Shown piece by piece: positions 535 through 13,824 of a DNA stretch of 32,952 nucleotides; the first letter of the stretch is position 1; each line of letters starts with the position of its first letter. The DNA is taken from contig JAZNWM010000089.1 of the NCBI GenBank assembly GCA_045593345.1, forward strand, positions 1 through 32,952. Direction: 5' to 3'. Both the position numbers and the translations under genes were made by a program. This stretch comes from Eubacteriales bacterium. Its GTDB lineage: Bacteria > Bacillota > Clostridia > Oscillospirales > CAG-272. The notes beneath the pieces are model-generated. The model saw nothing but the letters and a program-made list of their open reading frames with translations. It searched no databases and had not been told where the DNA came from.

Positions 535-2001
535 TTACAGCCTTATTTTCAAGGCGGGAACCGTACCTAAGTTGGTATAGTCAACCCAGATAGAGCTATT
601 ACAATGTCCGTCTGTGCTACTTCTGTATGCATAGCCGCTACGGTTACAGTCGGGCGAGCGATGATACCACCAGCCGTTGCCGTAGTAGTCCTCCGTTGTT
701 ATCATCAGCGCTCCGAGTGCTCTTGAGTAATCCGATGTTATCATCTCTCTCGACTCATCTGCGGACTCGGAAGAAGAAAATCCGTAGGCTTCGTTGGTTG
801 CTTCCTCTTGAGAAAGAAGAAAAATCTTATCGTTGGTATTTTCACAAACGTATTCGTTAACACCTCCGTTATGTGCGGTTTCGTTGCCGTGGGGGTTAGT
901 GCTCTTTGCGCTGTTATCCACCTCGGTGATCAGAATTATTTCCTGCTGAAGCGCGCTGAATGCCGTTTCGTAGAAGGTTGCGTTAAGCCAGGCTCTTATT
1001 TCGCTGTACTTATAGTTATTTGCATAGGTGCCCTCGGGCACGCCGTCTGCGTTATTGTAGTATGTTTGATACCGGTCATAAAAATCCCATTGATATGGCA
1101 GGACGTCAATTATGCTATCGCAAAGGAGGAACGCCTCGCCATTTTCCTCGGAGAGTATTCTCCAACGGATGGGCTCAACCTTGAAGTAATATACGGTTCC
1201 TTTCGTTATGCTTGCTCCTGTGGAGAAGGTAAAGTCACTATAGTGAGGATCTGCACTTACCTTGGCATAATAGCATCCGTCGTCACCCAGGTAGTAGCCA
1301 CGTTCGTCGGTGGTTGAGGTAATGGTTACGCTATCGGCCTTTAACGTCTGGGGATATTCGCCGAAATAGATGTAATCGCCATCGCGGGTGTATGCCTTTT
1401 TGCCCTCTTTACCGCAGGTAGTACATACTCCGTCCTTGAAGGTGTGTATATCCTCAAGGCATTTGCGAAGGGCTGCTATCTCCTCATCCTTTTTCGCGGA
1501 GGCCTCGTTAATCTCGCCTACCAAAGCCTCGAGATTGGTTACCGTGTCATTAAGGCGGACAATCTGAGCTTCGAGATCCTCCTTCGTGCTGTTAAGCGAA
1601 GCCGCCTTTGCTTCAAGAGTCTCAACCTGCTCCTCAAGCTTTGATATTTCCTCCGAAAGTGCGTTGGAGTTGCCGTCCATAAGTGCCTTAAGCCTTGCGG
1701 TTTCGGTCTCAAGGTTTGTGATTTCTTCCTCAAGCGAGGCCTTTTCAGACTCAAGTGCGATCTTCTCCGCGCGGAGTGTTTCAAGGTCTGCCTTGAGTGA
1801 TGTTATCTCGGCAGACTGCTCCGCCTTTTCTGCTTCCAACTCAGCTATCTCATCGTTAGCTCCCTCGAGCTGTTCTGTCAATTCCGCAACCTGAGCGCTT
1901 AACGCCTCAACATCGCCGTCAGAGCCTGCACAGGCCGGCAAGCCAAAAAGCGACGTGCACATGAGTATTGTAAAAAGAATTAATGATATTATTTTTTTCA
2001 T
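535..2001 (-). CDS. Lipoprotein with a long N-terminal coiled coil and a C-terminal DUF6273-like domain
   Basis: Signal peptide with lipobox (LFGLPAC). About 150 aa of E/L/A heptad-like coiled coil. C-terminal motifs YIYFGEYPQ, IRWRIL, SEIRAWLN, DKIFLLSQEEA and WWYHRSP are typical of DUF6273 as I recall it. RBS AAGGAG. Confidence 0.75.
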   Translation of the reverse strand: MKKIISLILFTILMCTSLFGLPACAGSDGDVEALSAQVAELTEQLEGANDEIAELEAEKAEQSAEITSLKADLETLRAEKIALESEKASLEEEITNLETETARLKALMDGNSNALSEEISKLEEQVETLEAKAASLNSTKEDLEAQIVRLNDTVTNLEALVGEINEASAKKDEEIAALRKCLEDIHTFKDGVCTTCGKEGKKAYTRDGDYIYFGEYPQTLKADSVTITSTTDERGYYLGDDGCYYAKVSADPHYSDFTFSTGASITKGTVYYFKVEPIRWRILSEENGEAFLLCDSIIDVLPYQWDFYDRYQTYYNNADGVPEGTYANNYKYSEIRAWLNATFYETAFSALQQEIILITEVDNSAKSTNPHGNETAHNGGVNEYVCENTNDKIFLLSQEEATNEAYGFSSSESADESREMITSDYSRALGALMITTEDYYGNGWWYHRSPDCNRSGYAYRSSTDGHCNSSIWVDYTNLGTVPALKIRL

Positions 2002-2029
2002 TTTCTTTCTCCTTTCTACTCTACATGTC

Positions 2030-2515
2030 TTACTTCAAGATCTTGAACTTACCAATAATGGGAAGCACCTTTGCCCTTCCATTCAACGCGTTGATGATGC
2101 CAATGACGGAAAGAACCATGATGATAATGCTTACGACCGGGGCGAGAAGCCAACCCAGAATCGGGATTACCATAAGAATGGAAGAGGCAATTCCTCCGAG
2201 GAAGAGAACAAGTCCCTGGTTCGCGTGAAATCTTGCAAAAGGAGAGTCCTTCGCAGCAAGAAGAGGAATAAAGAACAGTATATAGGCAAGAACACCCATA
2301 ACTTTATTCTTTTCAACATCGTCCTTATCAAATTGTTCGATGGTGTCTGTCGTATTTCCTGGATTTATCTCCTTTGTCGCAGGAGCGTTCTGCTCTACCG
2401 CAGGCTCGGTGTTTATTTGCTCGGTTGTTGAGCTGGGTTCGACCGCCTGACCACATTCGGGACAGAATTTTGCATAATCTTCAATTTTTGTTCCACATTT
2501 TTCGCAGTATGCCAT
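2030..2515 (-). CDS. Zinc-ribbon membrane protein (N-terminal CxxC...CxxC, C-terminal DUF4870-like transmembrane (TM) region)
   Basis: Start moved to MAYCEKCG (ATG at 2515) because AGGAGG lies 7 nt upstream. CEKCG...CPECG zinc ribbon, then a low-complexity linker, then 3 hydrophobic helices with an HANQ motif. Confidence 0.75.
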   Translation of the reverse strand: MAYCEKCGTKIEDYAKFCPECGQAVEPSSTTEQINTEPAVEQNAPATKEINPGNTTDTIEQFDKDDVEKNKVMGVLAYILFFIPLLAAKDSPFARFHANQGLVLFLGGIASSILMVIPILGWLLAPVVSIIIMVLSVIGIINALNGRAKVLPIIGKFKILK

Positions 2516-2589
2516 AGTAGTTCCTCCTATTAAAAAATCTTTTTTGTTTTTAAAAATTCGCACACGCGGGCGATGGCTTACATTATACT

Positions 2590-3261
2590 TTATTTGCCGA
2601 TAGATAAAGAGCTTGTACCGTTTGCAAAGGTAATCGAGGCGATGTAGCCGTCTGCATTTTCGGCAGTAAAGGAATAAAGAACCATTTCACCAAATTCCCG
2701 ATCCTCGACAACCTCGTTGATATTAAAGCCTGCCGCCTTTACCTGCTCGACGTAATCCCTTATCTGTTCTACTGTTGCGTTCGTAAATGTAGCACCAAAG
2801 CTTTCACCCTCAATATACGTCGCCTGCAATTCAAGGCTCGGCTTGGGAACAAGCCTTGTATATTCGTTGTCGGGCCAATTGCCACCGATCTGTCCTTCAC
2901 CACCGTCTGCATCCTTGACTACCCAGCTGCCGTCAGGCTTCTGAACTACGACCGTACCGTCCTCATTATCTACAAAGGTCGTGCTACCGTCCGCACCGAA
3001 GGAAATATCGATCCCCTCCGCCTTTCCTTCCATAACAAGCTGCTGCTTGCTTGCTTTGTCCATTTGACCGTAGATCACTGTAGAGCTTCCAATACCTGCC
3101 AACAGAGAGTCGGTATTGCCACCGTTATTATTATCCTCGCCGTTATGCGAATTGTCGGGGTTGTTTTCTCCGTCACCCGAGGGGTTGTCGTCCTTATTTC
3201 CGCAGGCGGCAAGGCTAAATACCATTATTAAAATCAATAAAAATGCTAATATTTTTTTCAT
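2590..3261 (-). CDS. Hypothetical lipoprotein
   Basis: MKKILAFLLILIMVFSLAAC lipobox, then a G/N/D-rich linker. Good ORF with an RBS. Confidence 0.8.
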   Translation of the reverse strand: MKKILAFLLILIMVFSLAACGNKDDNPSGDGENNPDNSHNGEDNNNGGNTDSLLAGIGSSTVIYGQMDKASKQQLVMEGKAEGIDISFGADGSTTFVDNEDGTVVVQKPDGSWVVKDADGGEGQIGGNWPDNEYTRLVPKPSLELQATYIEGESFGATFTNATVEQIRDYVEQVKAAGFNINEVVEDREFGEMVLYSFTAENADGYIASITFANGTSSLSIGK

Positions 3262-3324
3262 TGTGTTATCCTCACTTTCTTATTATTGAATAGCACGCGT
3301 GCCATCAGCCAAATGGGTGTGTGA

Positions 3325-4308
3325 TCAATAAGTCAAATTTTCCACCATATCGGAGAAGCCAACCTCCAACAAGCAATCATAGGCATAGTAATTTGAGATA
3401 GCGTAGATTCCGTCTTTTTTGAGGCAGCAACGATAGCCGTCCTCACCGTTAGTTTCCCATTCTACCTCCCAGCCCAGATCCTTGAGCTGATGTGCATAGT
3501 CAATAGCATCCTGATTAGTAGCACAGTGATAATTAAACCACGCCGCGTAATATTCATCGGGAAGCTTATCCTTGCTTAAATCAAAGTCGACGTCATCGTA
3601 GCCGTAGGTGAAATCCTGAATGGTGTAGCCTTTGTTGTAGTCGCATTCCGTCATACCGCACTGAGGCAGAGGAATACCGTCAATAAACTCGGGAAGTGTA
3701 AACAAGGAATCTGTTGCACTTACGCTAACGGAATAATCATACGCCTCCTCGCTTATAGACTCACGAACGAAAATTTCCATAAACCAGCCGTTGCCAAAGT
3801 AATCGTAGTACGTCCACTCGCCCGTTTCCGTACAACCGCCCACCATACCCTTGGCTTCTACTGCCTCCGTAAAAGTGTTTAGCTGATCCTCGGTTGCATA
3901 AAAGAACACGCCGTATTCTCGATAATCTTCCTTGGACTCATAATATAGAGGACCTACGGCATAGGAACCATTTAGGGTATCGTGCTTGTAATCCTTAAAG
4001 GTAGTCTGATCCACCTTTACTCCCTCGGGGGGTGCCGGGAAGCAGTCCGGCAAAAACTCTTGATCCCACACATCGTAGATGTAGGCACCGTACCGGTTCT
4101 CGTCCCATCCCTCGGGCATCAAGCCTTCCAGCTTATCCATAGCATCCTCAAAATCTTCCACGTCTTCGTCCGAGATGATGGGATCACCGTTGCCGTTGTT
4201 GGAAGTGCCGGAGTCATCGCCATCTGTAGTTTTGTCGGTATCCTTACCGCAAGCGGCGAGGCTAAATACCATCGCTAAAGTCAGTAAAAGTGCCAATAGT
4301 TTTTTCAT
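3325..4308 (-). CDS. Hypothetical lipoprotein
   Basis: Start moved to MKKLLALLLTLAMVFSLAAC (ATG 4308), preceded by GGAGGAAATTA. The ATGA overlap with the upstream CDS stop suggests translational coupling. Confidence 0.8.
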   Translation of the reverse strand: MKKLLALLLTLAMVFSLAACGKDTDKTTDGDDSGTSNNGNGDPIISDEDVEDFEDAMDKLEGLMPEGWDENRYGAYIYDVWDQEFLPDCFPAPPEGVKVDQTTFKDYKHDTLNGSYAVGPLYYESKEDYREYGVFFYATEDQLNTFTEAVEAKGMVGGCTETGEWTYYDYFGNGWFMEIFVRESISEEAYDYSVSVSATDSLFTLPEFIDGIPLPQCGMTECDYNKGYTIQDFTYGYDDVDFDLSKDKLPDEYYAAWFNYHCATNQDAIDYAHQLKDLGWEVEWETNGEDGYRCCLKKDGIYAISNYYAYDCLLEVGFSDMVENLTY

Positions 4309-4679
4309 TGTAATTTCCTCCTGATTTGTTTTTTGTTGTGTTCGTCGTGGGAGTTCCTTCGACTTGCGCAATCCCGGCACAGGTCGTCTTCCTCCTCCAT
4401 TGCGAAGCATTCGTCGCAAACAAATCTGCCACAAGAGTTACATTGATTAAAACGTAGCCTTGCTTCCAGATTTGCCCTCTCGAAAGCCGCGTCGTGATCG
4501 ATACGGAAGAGAATGTCCTTTGCCTTTTTTTCGTCGTCGGATAGCGACTCCGAGAAGCCGTGAACGAACGGATATTCCTCGCTCGTCCATTCCCTTTCGC
4601 ATCGGTCGCAATAGAAGGAGAATTTGAAGTAGACGTCCGTCGATCTATCCCTATGCTTTTGGGTAATCGTTTTTAGCAT
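4305..4679 (-). CDS. Cysteine-rich cytoplasmic protein (putative zinc finger)
   Basis: Start moved to MLKTITQ (ATG 4679) with AGGAGG upstream. Motifs CDRC...CNSCGRFVCDEC...CRDC. No signal peptide. Confidence 0.7.
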   Translation of the reverse strand: MLKTITQKHRDRSTDVYFKFSFYCDRCEREWTSEEYPFVHGFSESLSDDEKKAKDILFRIDHDAAFERANLEARLRFNQCNSCGRFVCDECFAMEEEDDLCRDCASRRNSHDEHNKKQIRRKLQ

Positions 4680-4731: not shown

Positions 4732-4761
4732 ATTATACCCGAAAAACTCACCGCCTGTCTA
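4732..4761 (-). promoter_or_regulatory. Sigma-A-type promoter for the 4679->535 operon
   Basis: Minus strand reads TAGACA-18 nt-TATAAT, about 45 nt upstream of the RBS of CDS 4305-4679. Confidence 0.55.
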
Positions 4762-4846
4762 TTACCCGCACATTACCCTTTCGGGTGATTTTTAGGGGGA
4801 AAAGGGGTATTTTTTGCAAAAAAACATTACCCATACGGGTATACCC
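4734..4846. promoter_or_regulatory. Cluster of (A/T)TACCC half-sites including two palindromes; candidate LuxR-type operators
   Basis: Half-sites: TATACCC 4734-4740, ATTACCC 4761-4767, GGGGTAT 4804-4810, TATACCC 4840-4846. Palindromes: ATTACCC-TTTC-GGGTGAT 4772-4789 and ATTACCC-ATAC-GGGTATA 4826-4843. Confidence 0.5.
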
Positions 4847-4870: not shown

Positions 4871-4900
4871 AAAAAAGCCCGACCGTTTCCGATCGGGCTT
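4871..4900 (-). terminator. Rho-independent terminator after the beta-helix/LuxR gene
   Basis: Minus strand: AAGCCCGA-loop-TCGGGCTT followed by TTTTTT. Confidence 0.75.
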
Positions 4901-4913
4901 TCACCGTATTTTT

Positions 4914-7274
4914 TTACTTGAACAATGCAAACAATTCGTTACGTGAGGCAACTCCAAGCTTTGCATATATGCTCGTTATCTGCTTTTTGACCGTATTCTC
5001 GCTAATGTAAAGCATAGCAGCAATTTCGTTTCGTTGCTTGCCTTCGAGCAGAAGATCAAGCACCTCTTTTTCTCTCGGAGAGAGCATACTAGTGTCGGGT
5101 AATTTCTTTTCTGCGGTAACGGCAGGCTCACCGACAACGACGACCGTCTGTTCCTTCCGTCTGAATACCACAAGAGCAAGAGCCGCAAGACCGCCTGCAA
5201 ACAACACACCGAAGGTGATGATCAGCACCGTTGCGATAGGAAAGTCCTTTTCGTAGAATGCGTAATAGGTGACATCTCCTGCGTGTGTGAATATTTCGCC
5301 GTCCTCGATTTTATCACCCAACCCATCCTCGGTGCTAAACCAACCACCAAAGCTGTAACCCGATTTCTCGATAGCCTCTGGGAATGAAATAGACGCATCG
5401 TAGGTCTGCTGTACCGTGATGGTCTGCGCGTTGCCAAAATCAAAGGTCACCGTGTAAACGTTTGGAGTGAATACTGCGTGGAAATCTATGCTTTTGGTTT
5501 CGTTTCCTACGATGAAATATCGGTCTGCCTGATAATCAAAATTCTCGGCAAGTGTCCAAGAGGTGAGCGTATAGCCTGTCTTTTCAAAGGCAGGGCGCGT
5601 TGGATGTGTGCCTGAAGGAAGAACAACGGTTTCCTTGCAAACGCCGTCCATGAAGAATTTGAAGGTCACATCGTGATTGTTCGCACCTACGGTAAACGTA
5701 CCGTAGTAGTTTCTATCTCCCAGCTTTTCCTTGATGAAACTGGTGGAAACGGTGGGGGCGTGTACGAGATGACCTTCCTCGTTGTACCATTCAGCCGGGG
5801 CTGTGCTGCCGAAATAATTGTATCCGTTTTCCTCAGCGGGCTGTTCGACTTTCGGATTGTGGGTTTCATACAACTCGTCAACCACCAAATTCCCGTAGTA
5901 GTTGAGATAATTTATATCAAAAAAGTCGGGATACCACGAAAACCAAAGCCATCTATCCTCGCCGTATCCTGTATAATCGGACATTGCCGTTTTACAGGTG
6001 TTGTTCTCTATCGTACAGAACAGTAAATGAATTGATCGAGTGCTGTAATCAAGCGAGGGATTATAATCTGTAAAAATTGCGCCCATTGCATTCTCTGCGT
6101 AATTTTTACGGATCTCTGTGTTGCTTACGTTTACGCTTATTGCACCGTTGAGATAAATCGCGCCTCCGAGACCTTGATTGCTGGCAAGTCCGAGCGTGCT
6201 TCGCTTATCCTCAGTTTCCGGAATCGCCCTGTTCTCGGTAATATAGCAGTCCTCGATATCCACGCTTGATATATCTATTCCTATACCGCCGCCAACCGAC
6301 GCCTTGTTGCCGACAATTTTACAATTGCGAACAGTAATCTCCGAGCCGTCTGTGCATCCGATAGCACCTCCGCTTAACATATCTGCCCAAAATCTTTCAC
6401 CGCCGTAAAAGTAGTTCGCATCATTCCTCTCGAAAACGCATCCCTCAAAGGAGGCAGCAACGTTCCTCATATAGATAGCACCGCCACCGACAGCATTCTG
6501 AACAAATCCCGACTTGTTATCGTTAAAGCTGCAATCCTTAACGTTCAGAGTAACGTTCTTGTTATTCGCTTCCACGTATACAGCACCGCCGCCGTACAGT
6601 GATGCGTTGGAGGAAAAGCTACATCCCTCCAAATTAAGCTCTAATCTATACGGCACATTGTCGCCATGCTCGGCTTCAAGCCAGGGAGTCAGCGTATAAT
6701 CGGCGTAAAACGCGCGAATCGCAGGACCGTACGTATGCATATAATTTTTGAATTCACAATTTTTAAAGCCTGCGATTGCATTGCCCTTGCACTCAACGGC
6801 ATACTGATTTTTTAACGGATACGGAGATAATTCCTCACCCATACTATCGTATGAAAGCTGCCAATCCTCGTCCGTAATCACATTCGTATCAAGTCCTTCG
6901 TTAAAAGTGATTCCTTCAAATGAAAACGTGGAGTATTCGCCACCAATCTTCGTTCCGTTCAGTATGAAGCTCGCCCCTGTAAATACGGCGTTGCCGTCCG
7001 TCTTGCCGCTTTTTATAGTAATGTTTTTATCAATAATAATTCTTTCAATCGTATTAACGGCACCGGTAGAGTTTAGATTGAAATCAATATCGCCAACGAG
7101 AATGATATCGCCGTTCTCCGCCTTGTTCAGAGCGTTGATAAAATCATTTCTTGTCGTAATCAGCTCGTCCTCACGGGAGATTGCCTCCGCACCGACCGCT
7201 ACATTAATCGCAAAAGCCAAGCACAAAAACAACAAACACGAGAGAACATATAAAAATTTATGCTTTATCTTCAT
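4914..7274 (-). CDS. Membrane-anchored regulator: secreted beta-helix plus Listeria-Bacteroides-type repeats, one TM helix, C-terminal LuxR/GerE HTH
   Basis: Start moved to MKIKHKF (ATG 7274; GGAGGA RBS).
- N-terminal signal/anchor.
- Repeated GGGAIY / GGAIG / NxxxxGG motifs typical of right-handed beta-helix (pectin-lyase fold) proteins.
- GYTLTSW and GYSFGGWF motifs (Flg_new-type repeats).
- TM helix PIATVLIITFGVLFAGGLAALALVVF followed by RRK.
- C-terminus LSPREKEVLDLLLEGKQRNEIAAMLYISENTVKKQITSIYAKLGV is a canonical LuxR-type HTH. Confidence 0.8.
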   Translation of the reverse strand: MKIKHKFLYVLSCLLFLCLAFAINVAVGAEAISREDELITTRNDFINALNKAENGDIILVGDIDFNLNSTGAVNTIERIIIDKNITIKSGKTDGNAVFTGASFILNGTKIGGEYSTFSFEGITFNEGLDTNVITDEDWQLSYDSMGEELSPYPLKNQYAVECKGNAIAGFKNCEFKNYMHTYGPAIRAFYADYTLTPWLEAEHGDNVPYRLELNLEGCSFSSNASLYGGGAVYVEANNKNVTLNVKDCSFNDNKSGFVQNAVGGGAIYMRNVAASFEGCVFERNDANYFYGGERFWADMLSGGAIGCTDGSEITVRNCKIVGNKASVGGGIGIDISSVDIEDCYITENRAIPETEDKRSTLGLASNQGLGGAIYLNGAISVNVSNTEIRKNYAENAMGAIFTDYNPSLDYSTRSIHLLFCTIENNTCKTAMSDYTGYGEDRWLWFSWYPDFFDINYLNYYGNLVVDELYETHNPKVEQPAEENGYNYFGSTAPAEWYNEEGHLVHAPTVSTSFIKEKLGDRNYYGTFTVGANNHDVTFKFFMDGVCKETVVLPSGTHPTRPAFEKTGYTLTSWTLAENFDYQADRYFIVGNETKSIDFHAVFTPNVYTVTFDFGNAQTITVQQTYDASISFPEAIEKSGYSFGGWFSTEDGLGDKIEDGEIFTHAGDVTYYAFYEKDFPIATVLIITFGVLFAGGLAALALVVFRRKEQTVVVVGEPAVTAEKKLPDTSMLSPREKEVLDLLLEGKQRNEIAAMLYISENTVKKQITSIYAKLGVASRNELFALFK

Positions 7275-7479
7275 TATAGTTTTCCTCCACATCTGACAAA
7301 TCCACACCGTTATTCTTGCACCAAATAATAAACTTGCCGATTGCTCTTGCCTGTGGCTTACGATTCTCACGCTCCCAACGGCTGACGGTTGAATAGGAAA
7401 CACCGACCGCATCGGCAAATTGCTGTTGGCTTAGTAACCTCTCGGCTCTTATATATCTGATTTTTTGCGATAGAGTCAT
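7258..7479 (-). CDS. XRE-family HTH transcriptional regulator (73 aa)
   Basis: LSQQQFADAVGVSYSTVSRWERENRKP is a classic HTH_3 signature. GGAGGA RBS. The 3' end overlaps the next CDS by 17 nt. Confidence 0.85.
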   Translation of the reverse strand: MTLSQKIRYIRAERLLSQQQFADAVGVSYSTVSRWERENRKPQARAIGKFIIWCKNNGVDLSDVEENYNEDKA

Positions 7480-7513
7480 GCATTTTCCTCCATAATGTTT
7501 CTTAATATGTCAT

Positions 7514-7542
7514 ATTATATCACAAAATAGCCATTTCGTCAA
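7514..7542 (-). promoter_or_regulatory. Sigma-A promoter of the XRE/LuxR pair
   Basis: Minus strand TTGACG-17 nt-TATAAT. The word TCGTCAATAA occurs twice (7536-7545, 7564-7573), so the -35 sits in a direct repeat. Confidence 0.65.
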
Positions 7543-7625
7543 TAAGCTTTGATGTATTTACGCTCGTCAATAAAAAGAAAGGCACCACTTGGATGACTAC
7601 CGTAAATTGGTTTTATATTCAAATC

Positions 7626-7655
7626 AAAAAGGACGAGAAGCTTCTCGTCCTTTTT
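7626..7655. terminator. Perfect 15+15 palindromic bidirectional terminator
   Basis: AAAAAGGACGAGAAG|CTTCTCGTCCTTTTT. Confidence 0.85.
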
Positions 7656-7719
7656 GCACTCTTCCTTGACTGCAAGGTGTAGTGCGTTATACCGTATTAT
7701 TTGTTTCGGGCGGTAAGAG

Positions 7720-7940
7720 AATGATGTTTTTGCTTGCGCAAAAATGATGTTATTCGCTTCGCTCATAATGATGTTGCTCGCCAAGGCTCGCAATGATGTG
7801 ATGTTTGCCATAAAATGTGGCGAAGCCACACATCATTAGCGAAGCGTCATCACCGGACAAAGTCCTACATCTTTGCCGAAGGCAACATCACTTGCCCGCA
7901 AGGGCAAACATCATTCGGCTGACCTGCTTTATCGCAGGTC
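7720..7940. repeat. Divergent array of ~9 short units (small GNRA/GAA-loop hairpin plus ACATCATT-like word), followed by a hairpin
   Basis: AATGATGT at 7720, 7743, 7767 and 7792. The inverse word ACATCA(T/C) occurs at 7830, ~7846, 7867, 7885 and 7908. Hairpins at 7816-7830, 7855-7865, 7873-7885, 7892-7907 and 7921-7940. Confidence 0.8.
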
Positions 7941-8047
7941 GCCGTTTCGTGATACTTTCTGTCATTGGTGACCCGGAGTATTACAAGGTCGAATACGGGA
8001 TCTTGCTGTGTGAAAATGCTACGTCCAATTACAGCCTTTGTCCATAA

Positions 8048-10312
8048 TTATGTTTCATTTAAAAGAGATTTAACGTAATTAAGTTTTTCTAAAATTACAT
8101 TTAAACAGATCAACGTTAATTTAAATCCGTTCAACAATTCACCTCCGAAAATAAAAGCATTTCCGTGAGCGCACTCGTTCCTGATATTAAGGAAATTATC
8201 ATTATACATACACTGGTATACAAAGAACAAGTCGGGAACATTTTCTAAAGAAGAGGTTTCTTTATAAATTTCGAGAATGATATCTTGCAAAACGCTACTT
8301 GGATCTTTTTGGTGTATATACTCGTCCGTTTTTTCCTTAAACGGCACAATTGATAAATAAGAACCGTATTCTCTTATTTTGTTCTCTAATATAGGGAACA
8401 ATTGAGTAACATGTGCAAGATATATCTCGTCATTTAAATCAATCAATTTGTATTCAGATAATTCTGCTTTTATTTTTTCGTACAAAGTTTTTTCATCGGA
8501 AAATAGTGATATGCTCAAAAGAACGCCCTGAATCATGTCATCATAGATTGCGTTTAGCATATTCATAGGTTTCATTTGATTCAAGAACTTGTATGATTTA
8601 GTTTCAAGAATATTTTCTATGATGCTTAAAAACGCTTGATCCGTATCGTGTCTTTCAACATTTCGTATTCTCTCATATGGAAAAGATTTGCTGATTATTA
8701 GACTTGTAAACAACGAAGAGAATACCAATTCCGAGTGGAGAGATATTTTGTCTACCAAACGATCTTCTGTTAAGGAGATAATGCTACGTACATATGTGCT
8801 TGGTTTGTTAACTGCAAGCGCATTAGCAATATCAACAGATTCTTTTTTGATTTCAAGCGGTGTTTTGATAGAATGCATTTTTCCAAGGCACTTTTCATAG
8901 TAAATGCTTTGCCATGCCCTTTGCAATCCGATAAGCAACTGTTTTACTACTCTTTTTTCAACATTTGGATTTTGCAATTGTTTGAGCAAGAAAATTAAAA
9001 ACTCGTGGAATAAAGATGCCAAGGCAACGGATTGTTCTTCGTCAATCAGTTTTTGAAATACGTCAACTACATTTTCTAAAACTTCTGTTGTTTGTCCTTG
9101 AATTACAAATTCATTTCTGCAGTATTCAAAAAAATCTGTTGATTTCTTTATTTTAGTCCAACCGCTAGCCAAACTATCATTGTAGTCTTTAAGTAATTGT
9201 GTTTGCTCTTTGGTTGTAGTGCAACCTATTCTTTTTAAATGGCTTATGATTGTAGGAGAGGATAATTTCCCAATCTCAGCAACAAAATCGCGCATATACA
9301 GCTTTTTTATTGAATCTGATACGATCTTATCTTTGAGTAAAGCGGTTATAGTTAAAAGCGATGAGCATTCTATTTTATACCATGGTGTATCATCGTTAAC
9401 TGTTTTAAGATATTCTATTATCAACTCAAAATGCTTTGATATCGTTTGCTCGGATGGAATGCGGTTATACAAATAGTATCTAACCGTTTCAATAACGAAC
9501 GAGGATATATCGCAATTAAAATAATCAATTAACGAATCCAAAACATCTTCAGTCCACAAAGATATGTCGGGAATTGTTCTATCACTAAAAATGATAGCGG
9601 GTCTTAGTTTTCCGTCATCAATTTTGGTGTTGAGCATATCAAATATATACTGTTCTTCCCATGAAACGTTATTAGGATGATTTATTCTTCGATAATTAAA
9701 CGCATCCGCGGCAACTATTTCATTCCTATGTATTTCCAATAAACTCAAATTAGCGGGAATTACAACTTCATTAAGATTGTTTTCAAAGCAACTGATCCAA
9801 GTGCATTTATCCGAGTAATTTAGTGAGTTGAGTCGTGCAATTAAATTATCTTTCTCCTCTTTAACGTCATGTAAGTTGCTTAATTGAAAATAATTGTTAA
9901 ACTGGAATATACCCACTGAAAAAATATAGTTTCTGGGATTCTTATAGTTTAGTATTTTGGTTACATGTATTACAATTAGCAACAATTTGGAAAATTCGTC
10001 TGTAAAAGAATCCCACAATTCTTCGAAAGAGACTTTTTCACAGAAAAACAGGGCTAACGAGTTAACATTTTTTAACCATGGTTTATTTATCGTAATATTT
10101 ATATCCCCTAAATTATGGATGCTGACGAGGTGAGAATAAACATCGGAAATATCGTGGTAAGAATTTAAAAACTCTCCCCAGGTTGTAGTGTTCGCAGTGA
10201 ATCCTTTGAAATCAGCTTCAGTTTGATCTATAAACCACTGCCAATCTTTACTTAAATTTAATAATCCATCGGAAAATTTAACTTTTGTTTCGTGTTCATA
10301 GTAATTTTTCAT
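8048..10312 (-). CDS. Orphan 754-aa AT-rich protein with a C-terminal HEPN-like (DUF4209/Abi_C-like) motif and a second internal IRNxxxH motif
   Basis: Long uninterrupted ORF in AT-rich DNA, with a GAGGGA RBS. LNIRNECAHG (aa 708-717, nt 8165-8185) fits the Rx4-6H HEPN signature and the 'NLRNxxAHG' pattern I recall for DUF4209. ERIRNVERHD (aa 547-556, nt 8648-8668) repeats IRNxxxH. No P-loop or other recognisable motif. Confidence 0.6.
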   Translation of the reverse strand: MKNYYEHETKVKFSDGLLNLSKDWQWFIDQTEADFKGFTANTTTWGEFLNSYHDISDVYSHLVSIHNLGDINITINKPWLKNVNSLALFFCEKVSFEELWDSFTDEFSKLLLIVIHVTKILNYKNPRNYIFSVGIFQFNNYFQLSNLHDVKEEKDNLIARLNSLNYSDKCTWISCFENNLNEVVIPANLSLLEIHRNEIVAADAFNYRRINHPNNVSWEEQYIFDMLNTKIDDGKLRPAIIFSDRTIPDISLWTEDVLDSLIDYFNCDISSFVIETVRYYLYNRIPSEQTISKHFELIIEYLKTVNDDTPWYKIECSSLLTITALLKDKIVSDSIKKLYMRDFVAEIGKLSSPTIISHLKRIGCTTTKEQTQLLKDYNDSLASGWTKIKKSTDFFEYCRNEFVIQGQTTEVLENVVDVFQKLIDEEQSVALASLFHEFLIFLLKQLQNPNVEKRVVKQLLIGLQRAWQSIYYEKCLGKMHSIKTPLEIKKESVDIANALAVNKPSTYVRSIISLTEDRLVDKISLHSELVFSSLFTSLIISKSFPYERIRNVERHDTDQAFLSIIENILETKSYKFLNQMKPMNMLNAIYDDMIQGVLLSISLFSDEKTLYEKIKAELSEYKLIDLNDEIYLAHVTQLFPILENKIREYGSYLSIVPFKEKTDEYIHQKDPSSVLQDIILEIYKETSSLENVPDLFFVYQCMYNDNFLNIRNECAHGNAFIFGGELLNGFKLTLICLNVILEKLNYVKSLLNET

Positions 10313-10704
10313 AATTCCCTCGCTAAAATAATAAGTTGTTTTTCAACATTTTTTGAAATATGGAGCTTAGTTTTAAAAACCTATAATTTTATTTGAAATA
10401 CAGCACTTTCACCGCCCTTAAGTATTATTATATCACAAAGTTTTACAATTCAAAACATATAATACCAATGCTTTGGCAAGTTGCTTCGAAAACTCAGTTC
10501 TATTCAATTGATCATAACTTTTAAGGGGTTTGTTCGATGAAAACATATTTGCCTCATTAAATTGTGATAATACAATGAATTAATTACACCTTATATAACA
10601 TTATACCGCTAAAATCGACAAAATTCTTCAAAAAAACAAAAAAATTATAAAAACTTATTTTTTATATATTTTCCCTCCCGAGGTGCTAATTGTCGCATAC
10701 TTTT

Positions 10705-10858
10705 CGTATAAGTCAATGTCGGGTCGGAAATTAGCACTGAAAAATTGAATAGCCAAGTTCCAAATTTATGGATAGAGCCAAGTAGCTGTAAAAGGTTACT
10801 TGGCTTTTTTCTTTTTACTAAAACGCACTAATTTCTGTCCCTCGTTGACTTATACATA
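10705..10858. repeat. Imperfect ~33-bp inverted repeat (10705-10737 / 10826-10858) bracketing an 88-bp segment
   Basis: Both arms share the blocks CTAATTTC and TTGACTTATAC. An extra copy of GTGCTAATT lies at 10683-10691. Confidence 0.7.
10776..10811 (+). terminator. Rho-independent terminator inside the inverted-repeat-bracketed segment
   Basis: AGCCAAGTA-N12-TACTTGGCT followed by TTTTTT. A second AGCCAAGT word lies at 10751-10758. Confidence 0.65.
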
Positions 10859-10947
10859 CCGAGTTGGATATGGCTTTCTTTATACCAAAGTATGCACAAT
10901 GCACCTTGCCGGAAGGCAAAAATAAAAATATACGGAGGTATAGAAAA

Positions 10948-11247
10948 ATGAAAAAAGTGTATTACTCGGTTAAGAGGTACAAAAGAAACGAAATGATCGA
11001 ACAGAAAGGAGTCGGTTTTATCACCGATACGGATTTAGTTATCGCTTGTATAAGTCAGAATAACAAACCGTATATCAAAGTCTTTGAAGACTGTGTCAAA
11101 GACTGTCACGCTATCCCCTACAGACCTAATGAATATCAAGGTGGATACTATGAAATCCGTGAGATTGAAGTTGATACAGGTAAGGATAATTACGATACCC
11201 GTGAAATTCAACTTGACTATAAAATCTGGTACAAGCTTGTGGATTAA
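10948..11247 (+). CDS. Hypothetical protein (99 aa)
   Basis: Start moved to MKKVYYS (ATG 10948), 8 nt after GGAGG. No recognisable motif. Confidence 0.6.
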   Translation: MKKVYYSVKRYKRNEMIEQKGVGFITDTDLVIACISQNNKPYIKVFEDCVKDCHAIPYRPNEYQGGYYEIREIEVDTGKDNYDTREIQLDYKIWYKLVD

Positions 11248-11275
11248 GAAATAAAAGTATAGGGAGATACAGAAA

Positions 11276-11761
11276 ATGAAAGAAACAATTAAAATAGATA
11301 TATCAAAAACATGCACAACAGATTTAGACACCGTGATCACACGGGAAAATGTGCTTTATTTATGCGAAAATATGGCCTTATGTGCCCTGAAACGTATGAT
11401 TGGATACAGAGGTGATTACGAGCTTCGTATGTACTACAATCTTGTTGGTGACATAAAAGGCAAAAACAATATAAATCATATATTTTCAGACAGCTATGAT
11501 TTAGTACAAACAGCCTGTCTGTTTTTACTTAACTATGTAGGTATGAAATTAGGAGATACTGTAATTGACAGGTACAATAAACAAGTTACAATAAGGCACG
11601 CTTGTTATAGTGAAATCGGTGCGGCTTTTTACAAAAGGTGGAATTATCACCAAAGAACCTATCCCATCAGTTATAAGGATGCCGAGGAAGATATAGAATT
11701 TATAGAAGAAATACAATTAACGAAAGCCAAGAAAGAGCCGATACAATCGTGGCACGAATGA
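11276..11761 (+). CDS. Hypothetical protein, weakly sigma-70 region-2-like (mobile-element regulatory module)
   Basis: RBS GGGAGA. SDSYDLVQTACLFLLNYVG resembles sigma region 2.1/2.2 (DLVQE..fl). The context (followed by a region-4-like HTH and a recombinase remnant) matches the ends of clostridial integrative elements as I recall them. Confidence 0.45.
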   Translation: MKETIKIDISKTCTTDLDTVITRENVLYLCENMALCALKRMIGYRGDYELRMYYNLVGDIKGKNNINHIFSDSYDLVQTACLFLLNYVGMKLGDTVIDRYNKQVTIRHACYSEIGAAFYKRWNYHQRTYPISYKDAEEDIEFIEEIQLTKAKKEPIQSWHE

Positions 11762-11922
11762 ACCTTAAAGAAAAGCACAAGAAAGTGTTAGATTGCTATC
11801 TTAAGGGGATGGGCGTTGTGGAAATATCTAAATCGTTAGGAATTGCCTACGCTACGGTTTGGCGACACAGAATGCTCTTGCAGAAACGGTATATCGAAGT
11901 TACGGGATACCAGGTCCAATGA
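11758..11922 (+). CDS. Small HTH protein (54 aa), sigma-70 region-4/LuxR-like; not in the supplied ORF track
   Basis: Hand translation: MNLKEKHKKVLDCYLKGMGVVEISKSLGIAYATVWRHRMLLQKRYIEVTGYQVQ*. ATGA start/stop overlap with the upstream CDS. Confidence 0.6.
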   Translation: MNLKEKHKKVLDCYLKGMGVVEISKSLGIAYATVWRHRMLLQKRYIEVTGYQVQ

Positions 11923-11972
11923 AAATAATACTTCCATACTCAATATGGCATATTTACAGATTAATACATAAT

Positions 11973-12006
11973 GGGAGAGCCCTAAAAAGCTCTCCCTGCT
12001 TTTTTG
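11973..12006 (+). terminator. Rho-independent terminator
   Basis: GGGAGAGC-N8-GCTCTCCC followed by tgcTTTTTT. Confidence 0.8.
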
Positions 12007-12077
12007 AAAAAATTCATATTTACATTGAAAAAACATCGCAAAAGTGAATAAAAAGTGAAAATTTACTGAAAATTCAC

Positions 12078-12107
12078 TTGACAATCGAACAATCGTGCGT
12101 ATATAAT
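12078..12107 (+). promoter_or_regulatory. Sigma-A promoter of the AlbA_2-type gene
   Basis: TTGACA-18 nt-TATAAT, about 30 nt upstream of the ATG. Confidence 0.65.
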
Positions 12108-12138
12108 ATATTTAGATTATTATGTGGAGGTATCAACA

Positions 12139-13440
12139 ATGAGCTTCGAAACTGAAAATATTGAATTTAAATTGCAATTCACCGAGGATTTGTACAAGGA
12201 GGTAATTGCGTTTGCCAATACCGACGGTGGTGTAATCTACATTGGAATTAACAACAATGGCGAGGCTGTCGGAATAGATAACGTTGACGAGAATTACACA
12301 CGTATCACCAACGGAATTCGTGATGCGATAATGCCCGACGTTACTATGTTTGTTAGATACACTATCCAGGAAAACAAGGTTGTTAAAATTTCTGTAGGTG
12401 AAGGATCATACAAGCCTTACTATCTGAAATCCAAAGGCCTAAAGCCCAGTGGTGTGTTTGTAAGACAGGGTACGTCTACCGCACCTGCATCGCCCGAACA
12501 AATACGCGCGATGATTAAAGAGTCGGACGGTGACAACTTTGAAGCTATGCGTTCTATGGATCAAGACTTAACCTTCGAGAATGCAAAAACTGCATTCAAA
12601 AAATACGGTATTGAATTTGCACAAAACAAGTACAGAGCACTTGGTATCACGCACCCCACCGAAGAACTGTACACCAATCTCGCCCTTATCATCTCGGACC
12701 AATGCACACACACAACAAAGGTTGCAGTATTCGGTGATGACGCAAATACCGAGTTTAGAGATAGCAAGGAGTTCGGCGGATCAATATTCAAGCAGCTTGA
12801 CGATACCTATTCGTATTTAACGTTGTGCAACAAAAAGGTTGCAACCTTCCAGGGACTTGAAAGAATAGAAAAGGCAGATTATCCGGACGCAGCTCTTCGA
12901 GAGGCATTACTTAATGCACTCGTTCACAGAGATTATAGCTTCAGTGGCAGTGTAATCATCAATGTGAATGATAATGAAATGGAATTCATCTCCATAGGCG
13001 GACTTCTTCCTGGGCTTTCTCCCGATGATATAAGAAGCGGAATTTCGCAGCCGAGAAACAAAAATCTTGCGGACATATTCCATCGTTTGCATCTTATTGA
13101 ATCCTATGGTACGGGTATAAGAAAGATATACAATCTGTATTCTAAATGCTCGGTTCAGCCTCGAATTGAAGTGACTTCAAACACATTTAAGATCATTCTT
13201 CCAAACATGAATAGTGTGGAAGTATCAAGCGTCGAATCTCCCAAAATCCTAGCAATATCGCCACAAAAGCAAACTATACTTGACTTTATTGACCAAAATG
13301 GCTATATTACTGAACCACAGATTATGGAGTTGGTAAAGGTAAAAAAGACAAGAGCGTATAACATAGCAAAAGAAATGCACGCCGATGGACTGATAAAACC
13401 AATCGGCCGAGGCAGTGCTAAAAAATATGTGAGAATGTAA
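12139..13440 (+). CDS. AlbA_2 (Schlafen-like) / HATPase_c_4 / winged-HTH protein (COG2865-type 'RecG-like' putative regulator)
   Basis: Start moved to MSFETENIEFK (GGAGG 8 nt upstream). Family-typical motifs: E..EFK......L.KEVIAFANTDGGVIYIGI..NGEAVG, then ALREALLNALVHRDY and YGTGIRKI. Confidence 0.8.
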   Translation: MSFETENIEFKLQFTEDLYKEVIAFANTDGGVIYIGINNNGEAVGIDNVDENYTRITNGIRDAIMPDVTMFVRYTIQENKVVKISVGEGSYKPYYLKSKGLKPSGVFVRQGTSTAPASPEQIRAMIKESDGDNFEAMRSMDQDLTFENAKTAFKKYGIEFAQNKYRALGITHPTEELYTNLALIISDQCTHTTKVAVFGDDANTEFRDSKEFGGSIFKQLDDTYSYLTLCNKKVATFQGLERIEKADYPDAALREALLNALVHRDYSFSGSVIINVNDNEMEFISIGGLLPGLSPDDIRSGISQPRNKNLADIFHRLHLIESYGTGIRKIYNLYSKCSVQPRIEVTSNTFKIILPNMNSVEVSSVESPKILAISPQKQTILDFIDQNGYITEPQIMELVKVKKTRAYNIAKEMHADGLIKPIGRGSAKKYVRM

Positions 13441-13450
13441 AAAAAGATAG

Positions 13451-13759
13451 TTGACAGACAAGGAAAACAATTATGGCAATCAAAAAAATGAATTATATAT
13501 GATGCTTGAAAAAGAAGAGATAGAAGCTTTTTACGTTAAGGCACTAAAATGCGAATCCAGACTGATAATTGAGCTCCTGATCAAAGAAATAGTGCTTTAT
13601 AATGACAAGATGGAAATTTATTTGAATACCCCGGTCAAGAACGGTCCCGATGAAAATCGGGGCTTTTCTTTTTATAACAAGACTATTAATTTAAGATATT
13701 ATTCCAAATATTCAAGATTGTTCGCTGGGAAAAGTGCAATTATAGATATTCGTGTGTAA
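13451..13759 (+). pseudogene. C-terminal remnant of a large serine recombinase (DUF4368-like tail)
   Basis: LIIELLIKEIVLYNDKMEIYLNTP resembles the conserved C-terminal 'l..lIdkI.Vy.d.kIeI.f' tail of large serine recombinases. No catalytic N-terminus is present, and the frame opens with TTG directly after the preceding gene. Confidence 0.4.
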
Positions 13760-13824
13760 TCAAGGATTTTGCTCCTTTGGAGCAATATACCTGCACTCGC
13801 TGCTGGAAAGCGAGCTTTCCGACA

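Follow-up and report, generated by a model that had tools for sequence, protein, structure and literature searches.

A membrane-tethered LuxR-type regulator with an adhesin-like outer domain, and its predicted target operon, in uncultured gut Firmicutes

To our knowledge, transmembrane one-component regulators are common in censuses, few of them have been studied, and almost all of these are ToxR/CadC-like proteins from Proteobacteria. In ToxR, TcpP and CadC, the DNA-binding domain is an N-terminal winged helix of the OmpR type and the periplasmic domains are small; AguR, in turn, is polytopic. The RsgI anti-sigma factors, which work with sigma-I in Clostridia and Bacilli, are single-pass polymer sensors that occur as multiple paralogues and control nearby envelope or cellulosome genes; their N-terminus is located inside the cell, they sequester a sigma factor and do not themselves bind DNA, and they undergo autoproteolysis and intramembrane cleavage.

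In the census of transmembrane transcription regulators (TTRs) by Demey et al. 2023 (PMC10269533), which concerns ToxR, TcpP, CadC, PsaE, BcrR and others, most proteins are of the single-pass form, and GerE ranks third among the DNA-binding domains, with 4,943 proteins (9.8 %). A characterised LuxR-like case is AguR of Lactococcus lactis and Enterococcus faecalis, a one-component transmembrane protein that activates the agmatine deiminase operon (PMC3796520, PMC4696319), while SusR of Bacteroides has an extracytoplasmic (periplasmic) sensor and a C-terminal HTH (PMC3878776). An earlier note on the DNA that we have analysed had placed LuxR-type HTHs usually on soluble proteins and had called a type-I layout with a C-terminal LuxR HTH unusual; in view of the census and the AguR precedent, this rarity is overstated, and what the note gave as established knowledge, i.e. 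N-terminal DNA-binding domains in ToxR, CadC and TcpP, is incomplete without the GerE figures, AguR and the C-terminal HTH of SusR.

Here, we describe a locus in a stretch of 32,952 nucleotides, to which we refer as the window, where an adhesin-like outer domain is joined to an inner LuxR-type DNA-binding domain in one real, conserved protein (Table 1). We consider it probable that this protein of 786 aa, which crosses the membrane once, is a one-component transcription regulator that directly activates the adjacent lipoprotein operon from the membrane. This reading draws on the architecture, conservation and predicted topology of the protein, on repeats that are conserved in position and specific to each clade, and on gene linkage, all of which the analysis has established.

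Table 1. Features of the locus, in the order of transcription; positions are those of the window.
Feature	Position	Strand	Basis
TCGTCAATAA direct repeat	7536-7545 and 7564-7573	(-)	exact repeat
xre-regulator operon promoter, TTGACG-17-TATAAT, extended TG	7514..7542	(-)	11/12 consensus matches
perfect palindrome TAATATG-a-CATATTA over -10/+1, candidate XRE autorepression operator	7503..7517	(-)	sequence reading; invariant in alignment
XRE-family 73-aa HTH gene, stop 17 nt inside regulator gene	7258..7479	(-)	ORF; Pfam HTH_3
786-aa transmembrane LuxR/GerE-type regulator, whole gene	4914..7274	(-)	ORF, Pfam, hydropathy, AlphaFold2, homologues
signal peptide or signal anchor, residues 1-30, MKIKHK + hydrophobic core + AVGA/EA	7185..7274	(-)	hydropathy
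right-handed beta-helix, residues 36-530, PMP-type GGA[IV]/FxxN turns	5685..7169	(-)	AlphaFold2 pLDDT above 90; Foldseek; Pfam
two Listeria-Bacteroides (InlB B-repeat) domains, residues 531-678, membrane-proximal stalk	5241..5684	(-)	Pfam, Foldseek, model
single transmembrane helix, residues 679-704, then RRK	5163..5240	(-)	hydropathy, AlphaFold2, relatives
disordered cytoplasmic tether, residues 705-729	5088..5162	(-)	pLDDT below 50
GerE/LuxR four-helix DNA-binding domain, residues 730-786	4917..5087	(-)	Pfam, PDB sequence match, Foldseek
intrinsic terminator-like hairpin + T-run 3' of regulator gene, GAAAGCCCGATCGGAAACGGTCGGGCTTTTTT	4871..4903	(-)	sequence reading
distal operator-like palindrome TACCCGTATGGGTA, ~-109.5 from inferred start site	4828..4841	(-)	site count; kept in related loci
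proximal operator-like palindrome cACCCGAAAGGGTa, ~-55.5 from inferred start site	4774..4787	(-)	site count; kept in related loci
extra GGGTAAT half-site abutting -35	4761..4767	(-)	11-bp duplication peculiar to window-type loci
downstream-operon promoter TAGACA-18-TATAAT	4732..4761	(-)	11/12 consensus matches; -10 conserved in related loci
gene of 124-aa Cys8 protein, cytoplasmic, with four CxxC pairs, all invariant; opens predicted target operon	4305..4679	(-)	RBS GGAGGAG + ATG
rest of predicted target operon	535..4302	(-)	ORFs, Pfam
lipoprotein, start overlapping Zn-protein stop	3325-4302	(-)	
DUF6591 lipoprotein	2590-3261	(-)	
Zn-ribbon/DUF4870 membrane protein	2030-2563	(-)	
coiled-coil/DUF6273 protein	535-2001	(-)	

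The regulator gene and the XRE gene are both located on the minus strand and show the 17-nt overlap that the earlier note had read; the regulator gene begins with an ATG at 7274, 9 nt after a GGAGGA ribosome-binding site, and its stop codon is located at 4914-4916. Hydropathy reveals only two hydrophobic segments in the protein, at residues 7-29, next to the AVGA/EA junction, and at residues 679-704, which agree with the N-terminal signal or anchor and with the single helix followed by RRK that had been recognised previously; the ectodomain between them, put at about 690 aa, is in fact ~650 aa long. In the AlphaFold2 model of the whole regulator (pLDDT 89.3), a beta-helix spans ~40-530 and is followed by two small beta domains (536-676), the transmembrane helix (680-701) and a disordered linker (703-723). 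The HTH occupies 733-785, and its four helices (733-743, 748-755, 759-773 and 778-785) correspond to the NarL/GerE effector-domain fold. The identity of the C-terminal domain as a LuxR/GerE HTH is borne out by the Pfam GerE match (PF00196) at 730-782 (4.5e-15, 55.4 bits; cut-off 23.5), by its top PDB sequence match, GerE of B. subtilis (6e-9), and by Foldseek matches to NarL, DosR, LiaR and GerE (target TM 0.72-0.88, rmsd ~1 A), while Pfam finds no Trans_reg_C domain (OmpR-type winged helix) in the regulator.

On the outer side, the beta-helix that had been proposed from the repeats appears in the AlphaFold2 model, accompanied by a marginal Pfam match to Chlam_PMP (21.9 bits; cut-off 20.6); PF02415 and PF13229 (Chlam_PMP and Beta_helix) are recorded in most homologues. 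The beta-helix is predicted to serve as the sensor or binding domain, although neither a catalytic nor a binding site is recognised in it. In the stalk, Pfam Flg_new is found at 607-672 (1.6e-14) and Foldseek matches the region to an InlB B-repeat (TM 0.87); both B-repeats of the earlier note are folded in the model, but only one passes Pfam, the second (GYTLTSW) being divergent. Neither an autotransporter barrel nor a cell-wall anchor is found at the C-terminus by Pfam or in the model, this position being taken by the transmembrane helix and the HTH.

Homologues of the regulator number more than 100, at 25-99 % identity; without exception they come from MAGs of uncultured gut Firmicutes, mostly Clostridia, and retain the transmembrane-HTH tail, and the homologue search yields 103 clusters with a matching domain set. 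Among 92 relatives, the transmembrane helix is present in all, the N-terminal hydrophobic segment in 80 (with lipoboxes in several), and the residues past the transmembrane helix carry a net positive charge in 89, which is why the HTH is assigned to the cytoplasm. The DNA-binding domain is thus predicted to face the cytoplasm and the ectodomain the outside, from the N-terminal signal, the lipobox in some relatives and the RRK after the helix; hydropathy and AlphaFold2 agree with the type-I-like layout that had been suggested. The B-repeat stalk is missing from relatives below 40 % identity. The tether, 23 aa long in the window protein, constrains the access to DNA from the membrane. Contigs from a metatranscriptome run cover the locus, which is weak evidence of expression, as such contigs may contain DNA.

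The earlier note had missed the strongest functional clue, namely that operator-like repeats are conserved downstream of the regulator gene and that a dedicated operon follows them. The spacer that follows the regulator gene contains the terminator-like hairpin, kept with compensating changes in the alignment of related loci, and two copies of the palindrome TACCC-N4-GGGTA. The core ACCC-N4-GGGT occurs at 3 sites in the 33-kb window (0.28 expected), two of which are located in this 186-bp spacer; in the same spacer of 14 other loci, drawn from all clades, the clade-specific half-site occurs in 1-6 copies, against 0.02-0.26 expected. The C-rich half-sites are arranged in most loci as two direct copies 10-12 bp apart and one inverted copy, and the operator-like sites adjoin the -35 of the next promoter, TAGACA-18-TATAAT at 4732-4761, which the earlier note had named for reporter fusions; it is not the XRE promoter and precedes the next gene downstream. 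With start sites placed by consensus hexamers only, the proximal palindrome of L001-type and clade-D loci precedes the start site by ~43 bp; it is located at ~-55.5 in the window, where the geometry differs from that of the relatives because of an 11-bp duplication. The half-sites differ by clade (TACCCG, ACCTACC, CCCTACC, TCCCCC) and shift alongside the recognition helix (TVKKQIT, TVKDYAGR, TVKDYYRK), an apparent co-variation across the ~5 clades compared. From these sequences we infer that the candidate palindromes may be bound by the HTH of the regulator.

The gene of the Cys8 zinc protein is located directly downstream of the regulator in 21 of 36 evaluable loci, across four clades, and homologues of the two proteins share contigs; the AlphaFold2 model of the Cys8 protein has a pLDDT of 88, and no relative of it is found in PDB, Pfam, NCBIfam or PADLOC. 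In other clades, the Zn gene is followed by comparable lipoproteins and by membrane proteins headed by a Zn-ribbon.

Upstream, the 73-aa protein is matched by Pfam HTH_3 (1.2e-10, 41.7 bits; cut-off 23), while its NCBIfam matches to RstR and DicA fall under their cut-offs; it looks like an ordinary autoregulator. The pairing of the XRE gene with the regulator recurs: among 60 evaluable loci, the XRE gene is upstream on the same strand in 27, where the copies are 85-100 % identical, divergent in 14 and absent in 19. Its promoter had been correctly recognised and is located at 7542-7514; the -10 region and the 5' UTR are invariant in 16 aligned loci with unrelated upstream flanks. The XRE protein may bind the palindrome TAATATG-a-CATATTA, half of which is the -10 box itself. 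The TCGTCAATAA direct repeat, within which the promoter had been said to lie, is exact in the window but is not conserved, as it is shared with the near-identical copy L005 only and missing from the 14 other aligned loci; it is probably non-functional. Nothing points to the XRE protein helping to release or modulate the regulator, as had been speculated: it is a bare 73-aa HTH, and it is absent beside 19 intact regulators.

In the mechanism that we propose, the signal sequence would export the ~650-aa ectodomain, with the PMP/adhesin-like beta-helix held off the membrane by the two InlB-type B-repeats, while the transmembrane helix and the 23-aa flexible tether would keep the GerE/LuxR HTH at the cytoplasmic face. 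The binding of an extracellular ligand, most plausibly a polymer or a surface since the ectodomain is a beta-helix, would alter the oligomeric state or the orientation of the regulator; HTH dimers would then fill the TACCC-N4-GGGTA palindromes and the half-sites that flank them, immediately before the -35 of the adjacent promoter. From this place, the membrane-bound regulator would most likely activate (class-II-like position) the Cys8-headed lipoprotein/Zn-ribbon operon. The XRE protein, made from the same mRNA, would most likely autorepress the xre-regulator promoter through the -10/+1 palindrome. That the regulator activates, how the XRE protein acts and what kind of signal is sensed are our inferences.

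It is conceivable, but unlikely, that the regulator is instead a latent factor, in which a stimulus received by the ectodomain leads to cleavage at site 1 and then within the membrane, and the HTH, once released in soluble form, binds the TACCC repeats, much as in RsgI/sigma-I signalling or in the cleavage reported for CadC. The tether (20-60 aa across the family, median 36) is short, disordered and poorly conserved, which would make access to DNA from the membrane awkward, and the transmembrane helix contains glycines (FGVLFAGGLAAL) of the helix-destabilising kind that favours intramembrane cleavage in site-2 protease substrates; precedents exist, in that regulated intramembrane proteolysis of surface sensors is reportedly established in Firmicutes and cleavage of CadC is said to occur. 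However, none of the loci examined has a protease gene next to the cassette, Pfam and NCBIfam detect no SEAL or other autoproteolytic domain, and ToxR and AguR work while bound to the membrane.

We regard as distinctly improbable that the protein is mainly a surface adhesin or a polysaccharide-modifying enzyme and not a dedicated sensor, with an HTH that merely couples its own abundance or occupancy to the neighbouring envelope genes, or represses at the -35. PMP-type repeats, like InlB B-repeats, are characteristic of adhesins, and the beta-helix fold is also that of PL6 lyases and AlgG (Foldseek pairs the domain weakly, TM 0.2-0.44, with PL6 lyases, AlgG, pectate lyase and tailspikes). Moreover, operator-like sites that touch or cover the -35 would suit repression just as well. 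Against this, the HTH is the most conserved portion of the regulator across the family, and the beta-helix of the family almost never occurs without the transmembrane-HTH tail: when 1.84 billion representatives are searched with the ectodomain only, the beta-helix proteins retrieved are 650-860 aa long and nearly all end in a transmembrane helix and an HTH. In addition, no conserved catalytic constellation has been recognised in the beta-helix, and the occurrence in several MAGs of two regulator paralogues with differing operator types fits insulated signalling channels better.

It is very improbable that the XRE protein or the Cys8 zinc protein, instead of the LuxR domain, binds the C-rich repeats and that the membrane protein has another, distant regulon. 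The genes of both show close linkage to the cassette, and the first of them encodes a DNA-binding protein, but the repeats stay in place in loci without the XRE gene (L003, L048, L050, L052 and L055) and in loci without the Zn gene (L002, L003, L055 and L060), so that the regulator is the only constant partner and the repeats track it. The repeat type follows the LuxR recognition helix, and a single operator type is found across the clade-A loci compared, among which the XRE protein is 85-90 % identical. The operator type switches only between clades, where the XRE protein diverges too (30-57 % identity). That an assembly error or a frameshift has joined a small LuxR gene to the gene of a surface protein, which the earlier note had named as a concern, is rejected as practically inconceivable: over 100 independent clusters, drawn from numerous assemblies and hosts, have the same continuous architecture with its transmembrane-HTH tail, the independent contig L004 is 100 % identical, and contigs from two other runs cover the regulator gene.

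Beyond direct activation from the membrane, we tentatively raise the possibility, itself doubtful, that the cassette is an unrecognised modular surface-sensing system of uncultured gut Firmicutes, mostly Clostridia, whose receptor, an adhesin-like beta-helix, reports contact with a polymer straight to DNA without a kinase or a sigma factor, with insulated paralogues that each have an operator code and a lipoprotein set, and with the Cys8 zinc protein as the dedicated feedback partner of the tethered HTH. If true, it would play in these Firmicutes the part that SusR/hybrid two-component sensors have in the PULs of Bacteroides and that sigma-I/RsgI sensors have in cellulolytic clostridia, and the contacted polymer could be dietary, host or microbial. 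A large folded beta-helix as sensor, its DNA-binding domain, and an operator and target operon that are both predicted fit within ~7 kb, and natural variants exist where operator and recognition helix change together; the locus offers a testable model of a tethered LuxR domain that reads DNA from the membrane, a handle on surface sensing by uncultured herbivore-gut Clostridia and, possibly, orthogonal gene switches with extracellular input.

Compared with the TTRs, the window protein likewise combines a transmembrane region (679-704) and a DNA-binding domain (GerE, 730-782) in one polypeptide that is predicted to act on nearby promoters, while Flg_new, Chlam_PMP and Beta_helix are not found in the parts of the census tables considered here (PMC10269533). 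Several TTRs require a membrane partner (ToxS, TcpH, PsaF), whereas the linked partners of the window regulator, the XRE and Cys8 proteins, are cytoplasmic; with respect to ToxR, CadC and TcpP, its DNA-binding domain is C-terminal and of the LuxR type, the orientation is reversed, and the ectodomain is large and adhesin-like. With chlamydial PMPs and Listeria InlB it shares the GGA[ILV]/FxxN repeats that form a beta-helix and the B-repeat stalk domains, but those are adhesins with an autotransporter barrel or a cell-wall anchor and no cytoplasmic signalling domain. RsgI has the opposite topology, and neither of its domains (N-terminal anti-sigma-I, juxtamembrane SEAL) is detected in the window regulator by Pfam or NCBIfam. 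The likeness to SusR is one of layout only, i.e. an extracytoplasmic sensor with a C-terminal HTH, the control (here predicted) of adjacent surface/lipoprotein operons, predicted operators with direct repeats and several paralogues per genome, as SusR is confined to Bacteroidetes, has a DNA-binding domain unlike known families and binds a periplasmic oligosaccharide (PMC3878776). AguR, going by its published description, is similar in being a membrane-embedded, LuxR-like Firmicute protein that responds to an extracellular signal and controls an adjacent operon with no partner kinase, but it senses a small molecule through a membrane-embedded domain, where the window protein has a single internal transmembrane helix and a folded ectodomain of ~650 aa (PMC3796520, PMC4696319). 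Membrane-bound LuxR-type regulators being already known, no principle is overturned, and the window regulator is a new variant within a known regulator class rather than a new kind.

The start of the regulator gene has been placed at the ATG at position 7274, which is overlapped by the final 17 nt of the small XRE-type helix-turn-helix (HTH) gene and is preceded, at a distance of 9 nt, by a GGAGGA ribosome-binding site; an upstream TTG start, which would give a protein of 834 aa, was rejected, since the ATG has the GGAGGA site and fits the N-termini of the homologues. The encoded protein contains only two hydrophobic segments, i.e. residues 7-29, preceded by MKIKHK and ending with AVGA|EA, and residues 679-704, directly followed by RRK. 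According to Pfam, a GerE domain is located at residues 730-782 (55 bits, against a cut-off of 23.5) and a Listeria-Bacteroides repeat at residues 607-672 (1.6e-14), with a marginal match to the PMP repeat; for the full-length protein, no curated family was found in NCBIfam or Pfam. The AlphaFold2 model, for which 65 family members served as input (pLDDT 89.3), comprises a right-handed beta-helix (residues about 40-530), two small beta domains (536-676), a transmembrane (TM) helix (680-701), a disordered tether (703-723) and a four-helix bundle (733-785). In Foldseek, the pieces of the model found separate matches: the beta-helix gave weak matches to PL6 alginate lyases, AlgG, pectate lyase and tailspikes (TM-score 0.2-0.44), the small beta domains matched the InlB B-repeat (target TM-score 0.87), and the C-terminus matched NarL, DosR, LiaR and GerE (rmsd about 1 A), GerE also being the top PDB sequence match of the tail (6e-9). 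Hydropathy, Pfam, the AlphaFold2 model and the ORFs bear out the signal segment, the beta-helix, the TM helix with RRK, the C-terminal LuxR/GerE HTH and the 17-nt overlap that the earlier note had described; the ectodomain is present in the model, at about 650 aa and not the approximately 690 aa claimed, and the two Listeria-Bacteroides-type repeats correspond to the two beta domains, the second B-repeat being divergent.

Features of the cassette and half-site types of the related loci
Feature	Position	Strand	Remarks
XRE gene	7258-7479	minus	73-aa ORF; Pfam HTH_3, 1.2e-10
Regulator gene	ATG 7274, end 4914	minus	786-aa ORF
Perfect palindrome TAATATGaCATATTA	7503-7517		spans -10/+1 of XRE promoter; within invariant stretch
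Terminator-like hairpin	4871-4903		3' of regulator gene
Distal operator-like palindrome TACCCGTATGGGTA	4828-4841
Proximal operator-like palindrome cACCCGAAAGGGTa	4774-4787
Downstream promoter TAGACA-18-TATAAT	4761-4732		ahead of Cys8 gene
Cys8 gene	4305-4679		124 aa; stop overlaps lipoprotein gene start
Genes after first lipoprotein gene			DUF6591 lipoprotein, then Zn-ribbon/DUF4870 membrane protein, then coiled-coil/DUF6273 protein
Half-site ACCTACC			L008, L015-L020
Half-site CCCTACC			L048-L052
Half-site CCTACC			L055 (Erysipelotrichaceae)
Half-site TCCCCC			L060
Half-site ACCCT			L003

The domain set of the regulator recurs in 103 clusters, at 24-99 % identity, in a search of 5.8 billion proteins. 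A word-free search of 1.84 billion representatives with the ectodomain only gave 137 matches below 1e-30, where the proteins with an uninterrupted match to the beta-helix measure 650-860 aa, nearly all with a terminal TM helix and HTH, and giant proteins are matched via their B-repeats only. The tether is 20-60 aa long in 92 family members (median 36); its shortness and the glycine-rich TM helix would suit an HTH set free by regulated proteolysis, a reading that we consider less probable, as neither a protease nor an autoproteolytic domain has been found linked to it. It is possible, but less likely, that the regulator is mainly adhesive or enzymatic, with the HTH acting as a repressor, because conservation is highest in the HTH (and lowest in the signal, TM and tether) and the regulator-type beta-helix is hardly found without an HTH. 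A strong TM segment precedes the HTH in all 92 members. A fusion artefact is excluded. The eight residues that follow the TM segment are net positive in 89 of the 92, which predicts a cytoplasmic position for the C-terminal HTH; an N-terminal hydrophobic segment is found in 80, several of which have a lipobox, implying a cleaved export signal. As judged from these sequence comparisons, the regulator is a genuine gene, with a topology that is consistent across the family. The cassette loci all belong to gut MAGs of uncultured bacteria; the hosts include goat, sheep, deer, horse and buffalo, and the taxa to which the loci are assigned are Eubacteriales, Christensenellales, Oscillospiraceae, Lachnospiraceae, Erysipelotrichaceae and Bacilli.

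Three relatives deviate from this layout: the 475-aa homologue P0098 (38 % identical across 53 % of the query's length), which may stem from a chimeric gene call or from a rearrangement, has PMP repeats and a phage-integrase domain (PF00589) where the TM-HTH tail would be; P0166 and P0196, from the representative search, are beta-helix relatives with a C-terminal TM segment and no detectable HTH, and may be decayed or anchor-only forms.

The spacer between the regulator gene and the gene of the eight-cysteine (Cys8) protein is 186 bp long and contains two palindromes, 54 bp apart, with an additional GGGTAAT at the -35 of the downstream promoter. Within the 33-kb window, ACCC-N4-GGGT is found three times, against 0.28 expected, and two of the three copies are located in this spacer; the third (14216) was rejected as an operator, being the stem of a GC-hairpin beside tRNA-Met, without T/A flanks. 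The palindromes are kept in ten related loci. In the other clades, where the palindrome sequence of the window is absent, an own C-rich half-site takes this position in an identical arrangement, with two direct copies at a spacing of 10-12 bp and then an inverted copy, ending just 5' of a -10 box. In each locus, the locus-own half-site word is clustered in the spacer (1-6 copies against 0.02-0.26 expected). At the sequence level, the half-site type varies in parallel with the recognition helix of the regulator: ISENTVKKQIT pairs with TACCCG, TVKDYAGR or TVKDNAGR with ACCTACC, and TVKDYYRK with CCCTACC. The repeats are kept in loci without the XRE gene and in loci without the Cys8 gene, so that the regulator is their sole constant companion; these same loci contradict the idea that the XRE or the Cys8 protein binds to the repeats.

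We infer that the tethered HTH would bind the C-rich repeats and control the operon next to the regulator gene, activation being more probable than repression; the functional assignments for the regulator family are predictions throughout. In L001-type and clade-D loci, the centre of the proximal palindrome is located about 43 bp 5' of the inferred start site, and the area around -43 is where class-II activators act, e.g. LuxR at the lux box. At 4756-4778, a tandem 11-bp duplication of the right operator arm (GGGTAATGTGC GGGTAATAGAC), corresponding to one helical turn, occurs in the window-type loci (the window, its near-identical copy L005, and L025) and is absent from L001-type loci; in the window, it has displaced the proximal palindrome, otherwise at about -43, to about -55.5, and a half-site is left at the -35.

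Two paralogous cassettes per MAG are present in four MAGs (L010/L021, L012/L026, L022/L034 and L028/L039), the pair coming from different clades in at least three of the four; different operator types are thus expected, which suggests insulated channels. Many cassette contigs are just 2-5 kb long, suggesting assemblies broken by paralogy.

The promoter at 4732-4761, named in the earlier note, was rejected as that of the XRE gene, since it belongs to the downstream Cys8 gene. The Cys8 protein has eight invariant cysteines, forming four CxxC pairs, and a confident AlphaFold2 model (pLDDT 88); a sequence comparison with the PDB gave no match, Foldseek gave none with E below 1, NCBIfam and PADLOC contain no family for it, and Pfam gives just a sub-threshold prokaryotic RING match. 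Its homologues share contigs with regulator homologues, its gene being located directly downstream of the regulator in 21 of 36 evaluable loci, and it is followed in other clades too by lipoproteins and Zn-ribbon-headed membrane proteins. In loci without the Cys8 gene, the gene behind the same promoter region codes for a lipoprotein or for a large surface protein of the Big_2 or Glug/B-repeat type. Clade-C operons (L016-L020, L057) encode, at their far end, homologues with 60 % identity to the Zn-ribbon/DUF4870 protein (2030-2563), so that part of the predicted regulon is kept across clades, while the lipoproteins vary.

Among 69 related loci, nine of which were not evaluable, 27 have the XRE gene directly upstream of the regulator and co-oriented with it, 14 have a larger XRE-like gene that is divergent to the regulator, and 19 have no XRE gene; the pair is therefore recurrent, in same-strand or divergent form. 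Across 16 loci with unrelated upstream flanks, the XRE promoter and 5' UTR do not vary. A palindrome across -10/+1 is the usual layout for autorepression by a small XRE protein, and by analogy the XRE protein may repress its own gene via the palindrome at 7503-7517, one half of which is the -10 box. The TCGTCAATAA direct repeat, noted earlier at this promoter, was rejected as a regulatory element, being restricted to the window and L005. Nothing points to the suggested help of the XRE partner in the release of the regulator: it is a bare HTH, absent in 19 loci. A defence or toxin-antitoxin role of the XRE gene was also rejected, with only generic HTH matches in PADLOC and no toxin-like partner. 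Just 5' of the XRE promoter, a perfect 32-nt palindrome (7625-7656, CAAAAAGGACGAGAAG/CTTCTCGTCCTTTTTG) resembles a bidirectional terminator that would insulate the cassette.

The window is part of a chromosome, and PFK, holA, asnA and OTCase are found nearby; given this setting and the lack of an adjoining integrase or transposase, the cassette was rejected as a mobile element. Its upstream flanks vary between loci. In one metatranscriptome run, contigs cover the cassette at a depth similar to that of a DNA run, with DNA carry-over possible and start sites not readable, which is compatible with expression. Further upstream, the stretch 7700-7920 contains many AATGATGTT/AACATCATT motifs, which occur in either orientation, and a 33-nt imperfect inverted repeat is found at 7719-7751 / 7884-7916. 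In two runs (metagenome or metatranscriptome), contigs reach depths of 56 and 131 at 7801-8100, compared with about 15 to either side, indicating a multicopy element at the edge of a low-GC island. This island (8048-14200) has a GC content of 31-40 %, compared with about 47 %, and extends to tRNA-Met (14238-14314, minus strand) and tRNA-Thr (14532-14607); two other runs have no contigs that contain it, the depth at 8101-9000 being 0. It codes for a 754-aa protein without a family match and for a Schlafen AlbA_2 / HATPase_c_4 protein (12124-13440), for which PADLOC gives weak matches to pAgo- and Aga-associated modules, and it may be a defence island that varies between strains. A second low-GC patch (18001-20000, 36 %) is located between housekeeping-type genes, and the minus-strand ORFs at 18169-18804 and 18855-19820 have no Pfam match.

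The premise of the earlier note, that membrane regulators have N-terminal DNA-binding domains and LuxR-type proteins are usually soluble, is too narrow. In a published census, GerE is the third most frequent DNA-binding domain among transmembrane transcription regulators (4,943 proteins, 9.8 %), and single-pass proteins are their commonest form (PMC10269533). AguR of Lactococcus and Enterococcus, a characterised one-component activator (PMC3796520, PMC4696319), is LuxR-like and transmembrane, as is our regulator, and SusR of Bacteroides (PMC3878776) shares with it a sensor outside the cytoplasm, in this case periplasmic, and a C-terminal HTH. The part of the census tables covered by the analysis includes no PMP, B-repeat or beta-helix domain names (PMC10269533), and our literature search found nothing relevant on an architecture of LuxR, beta-helix and Listeria-Bacteroides repeats. 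Membrane-bound LuxR-type regulators are thus already known; what is not described, as far as our searches reached, is a receptor whose large PMP-type beta-helix stands on a stalk of B-repeats and is joined to a LuxR domain, in a cassette together with an XRE gene and the Cys8 protein.
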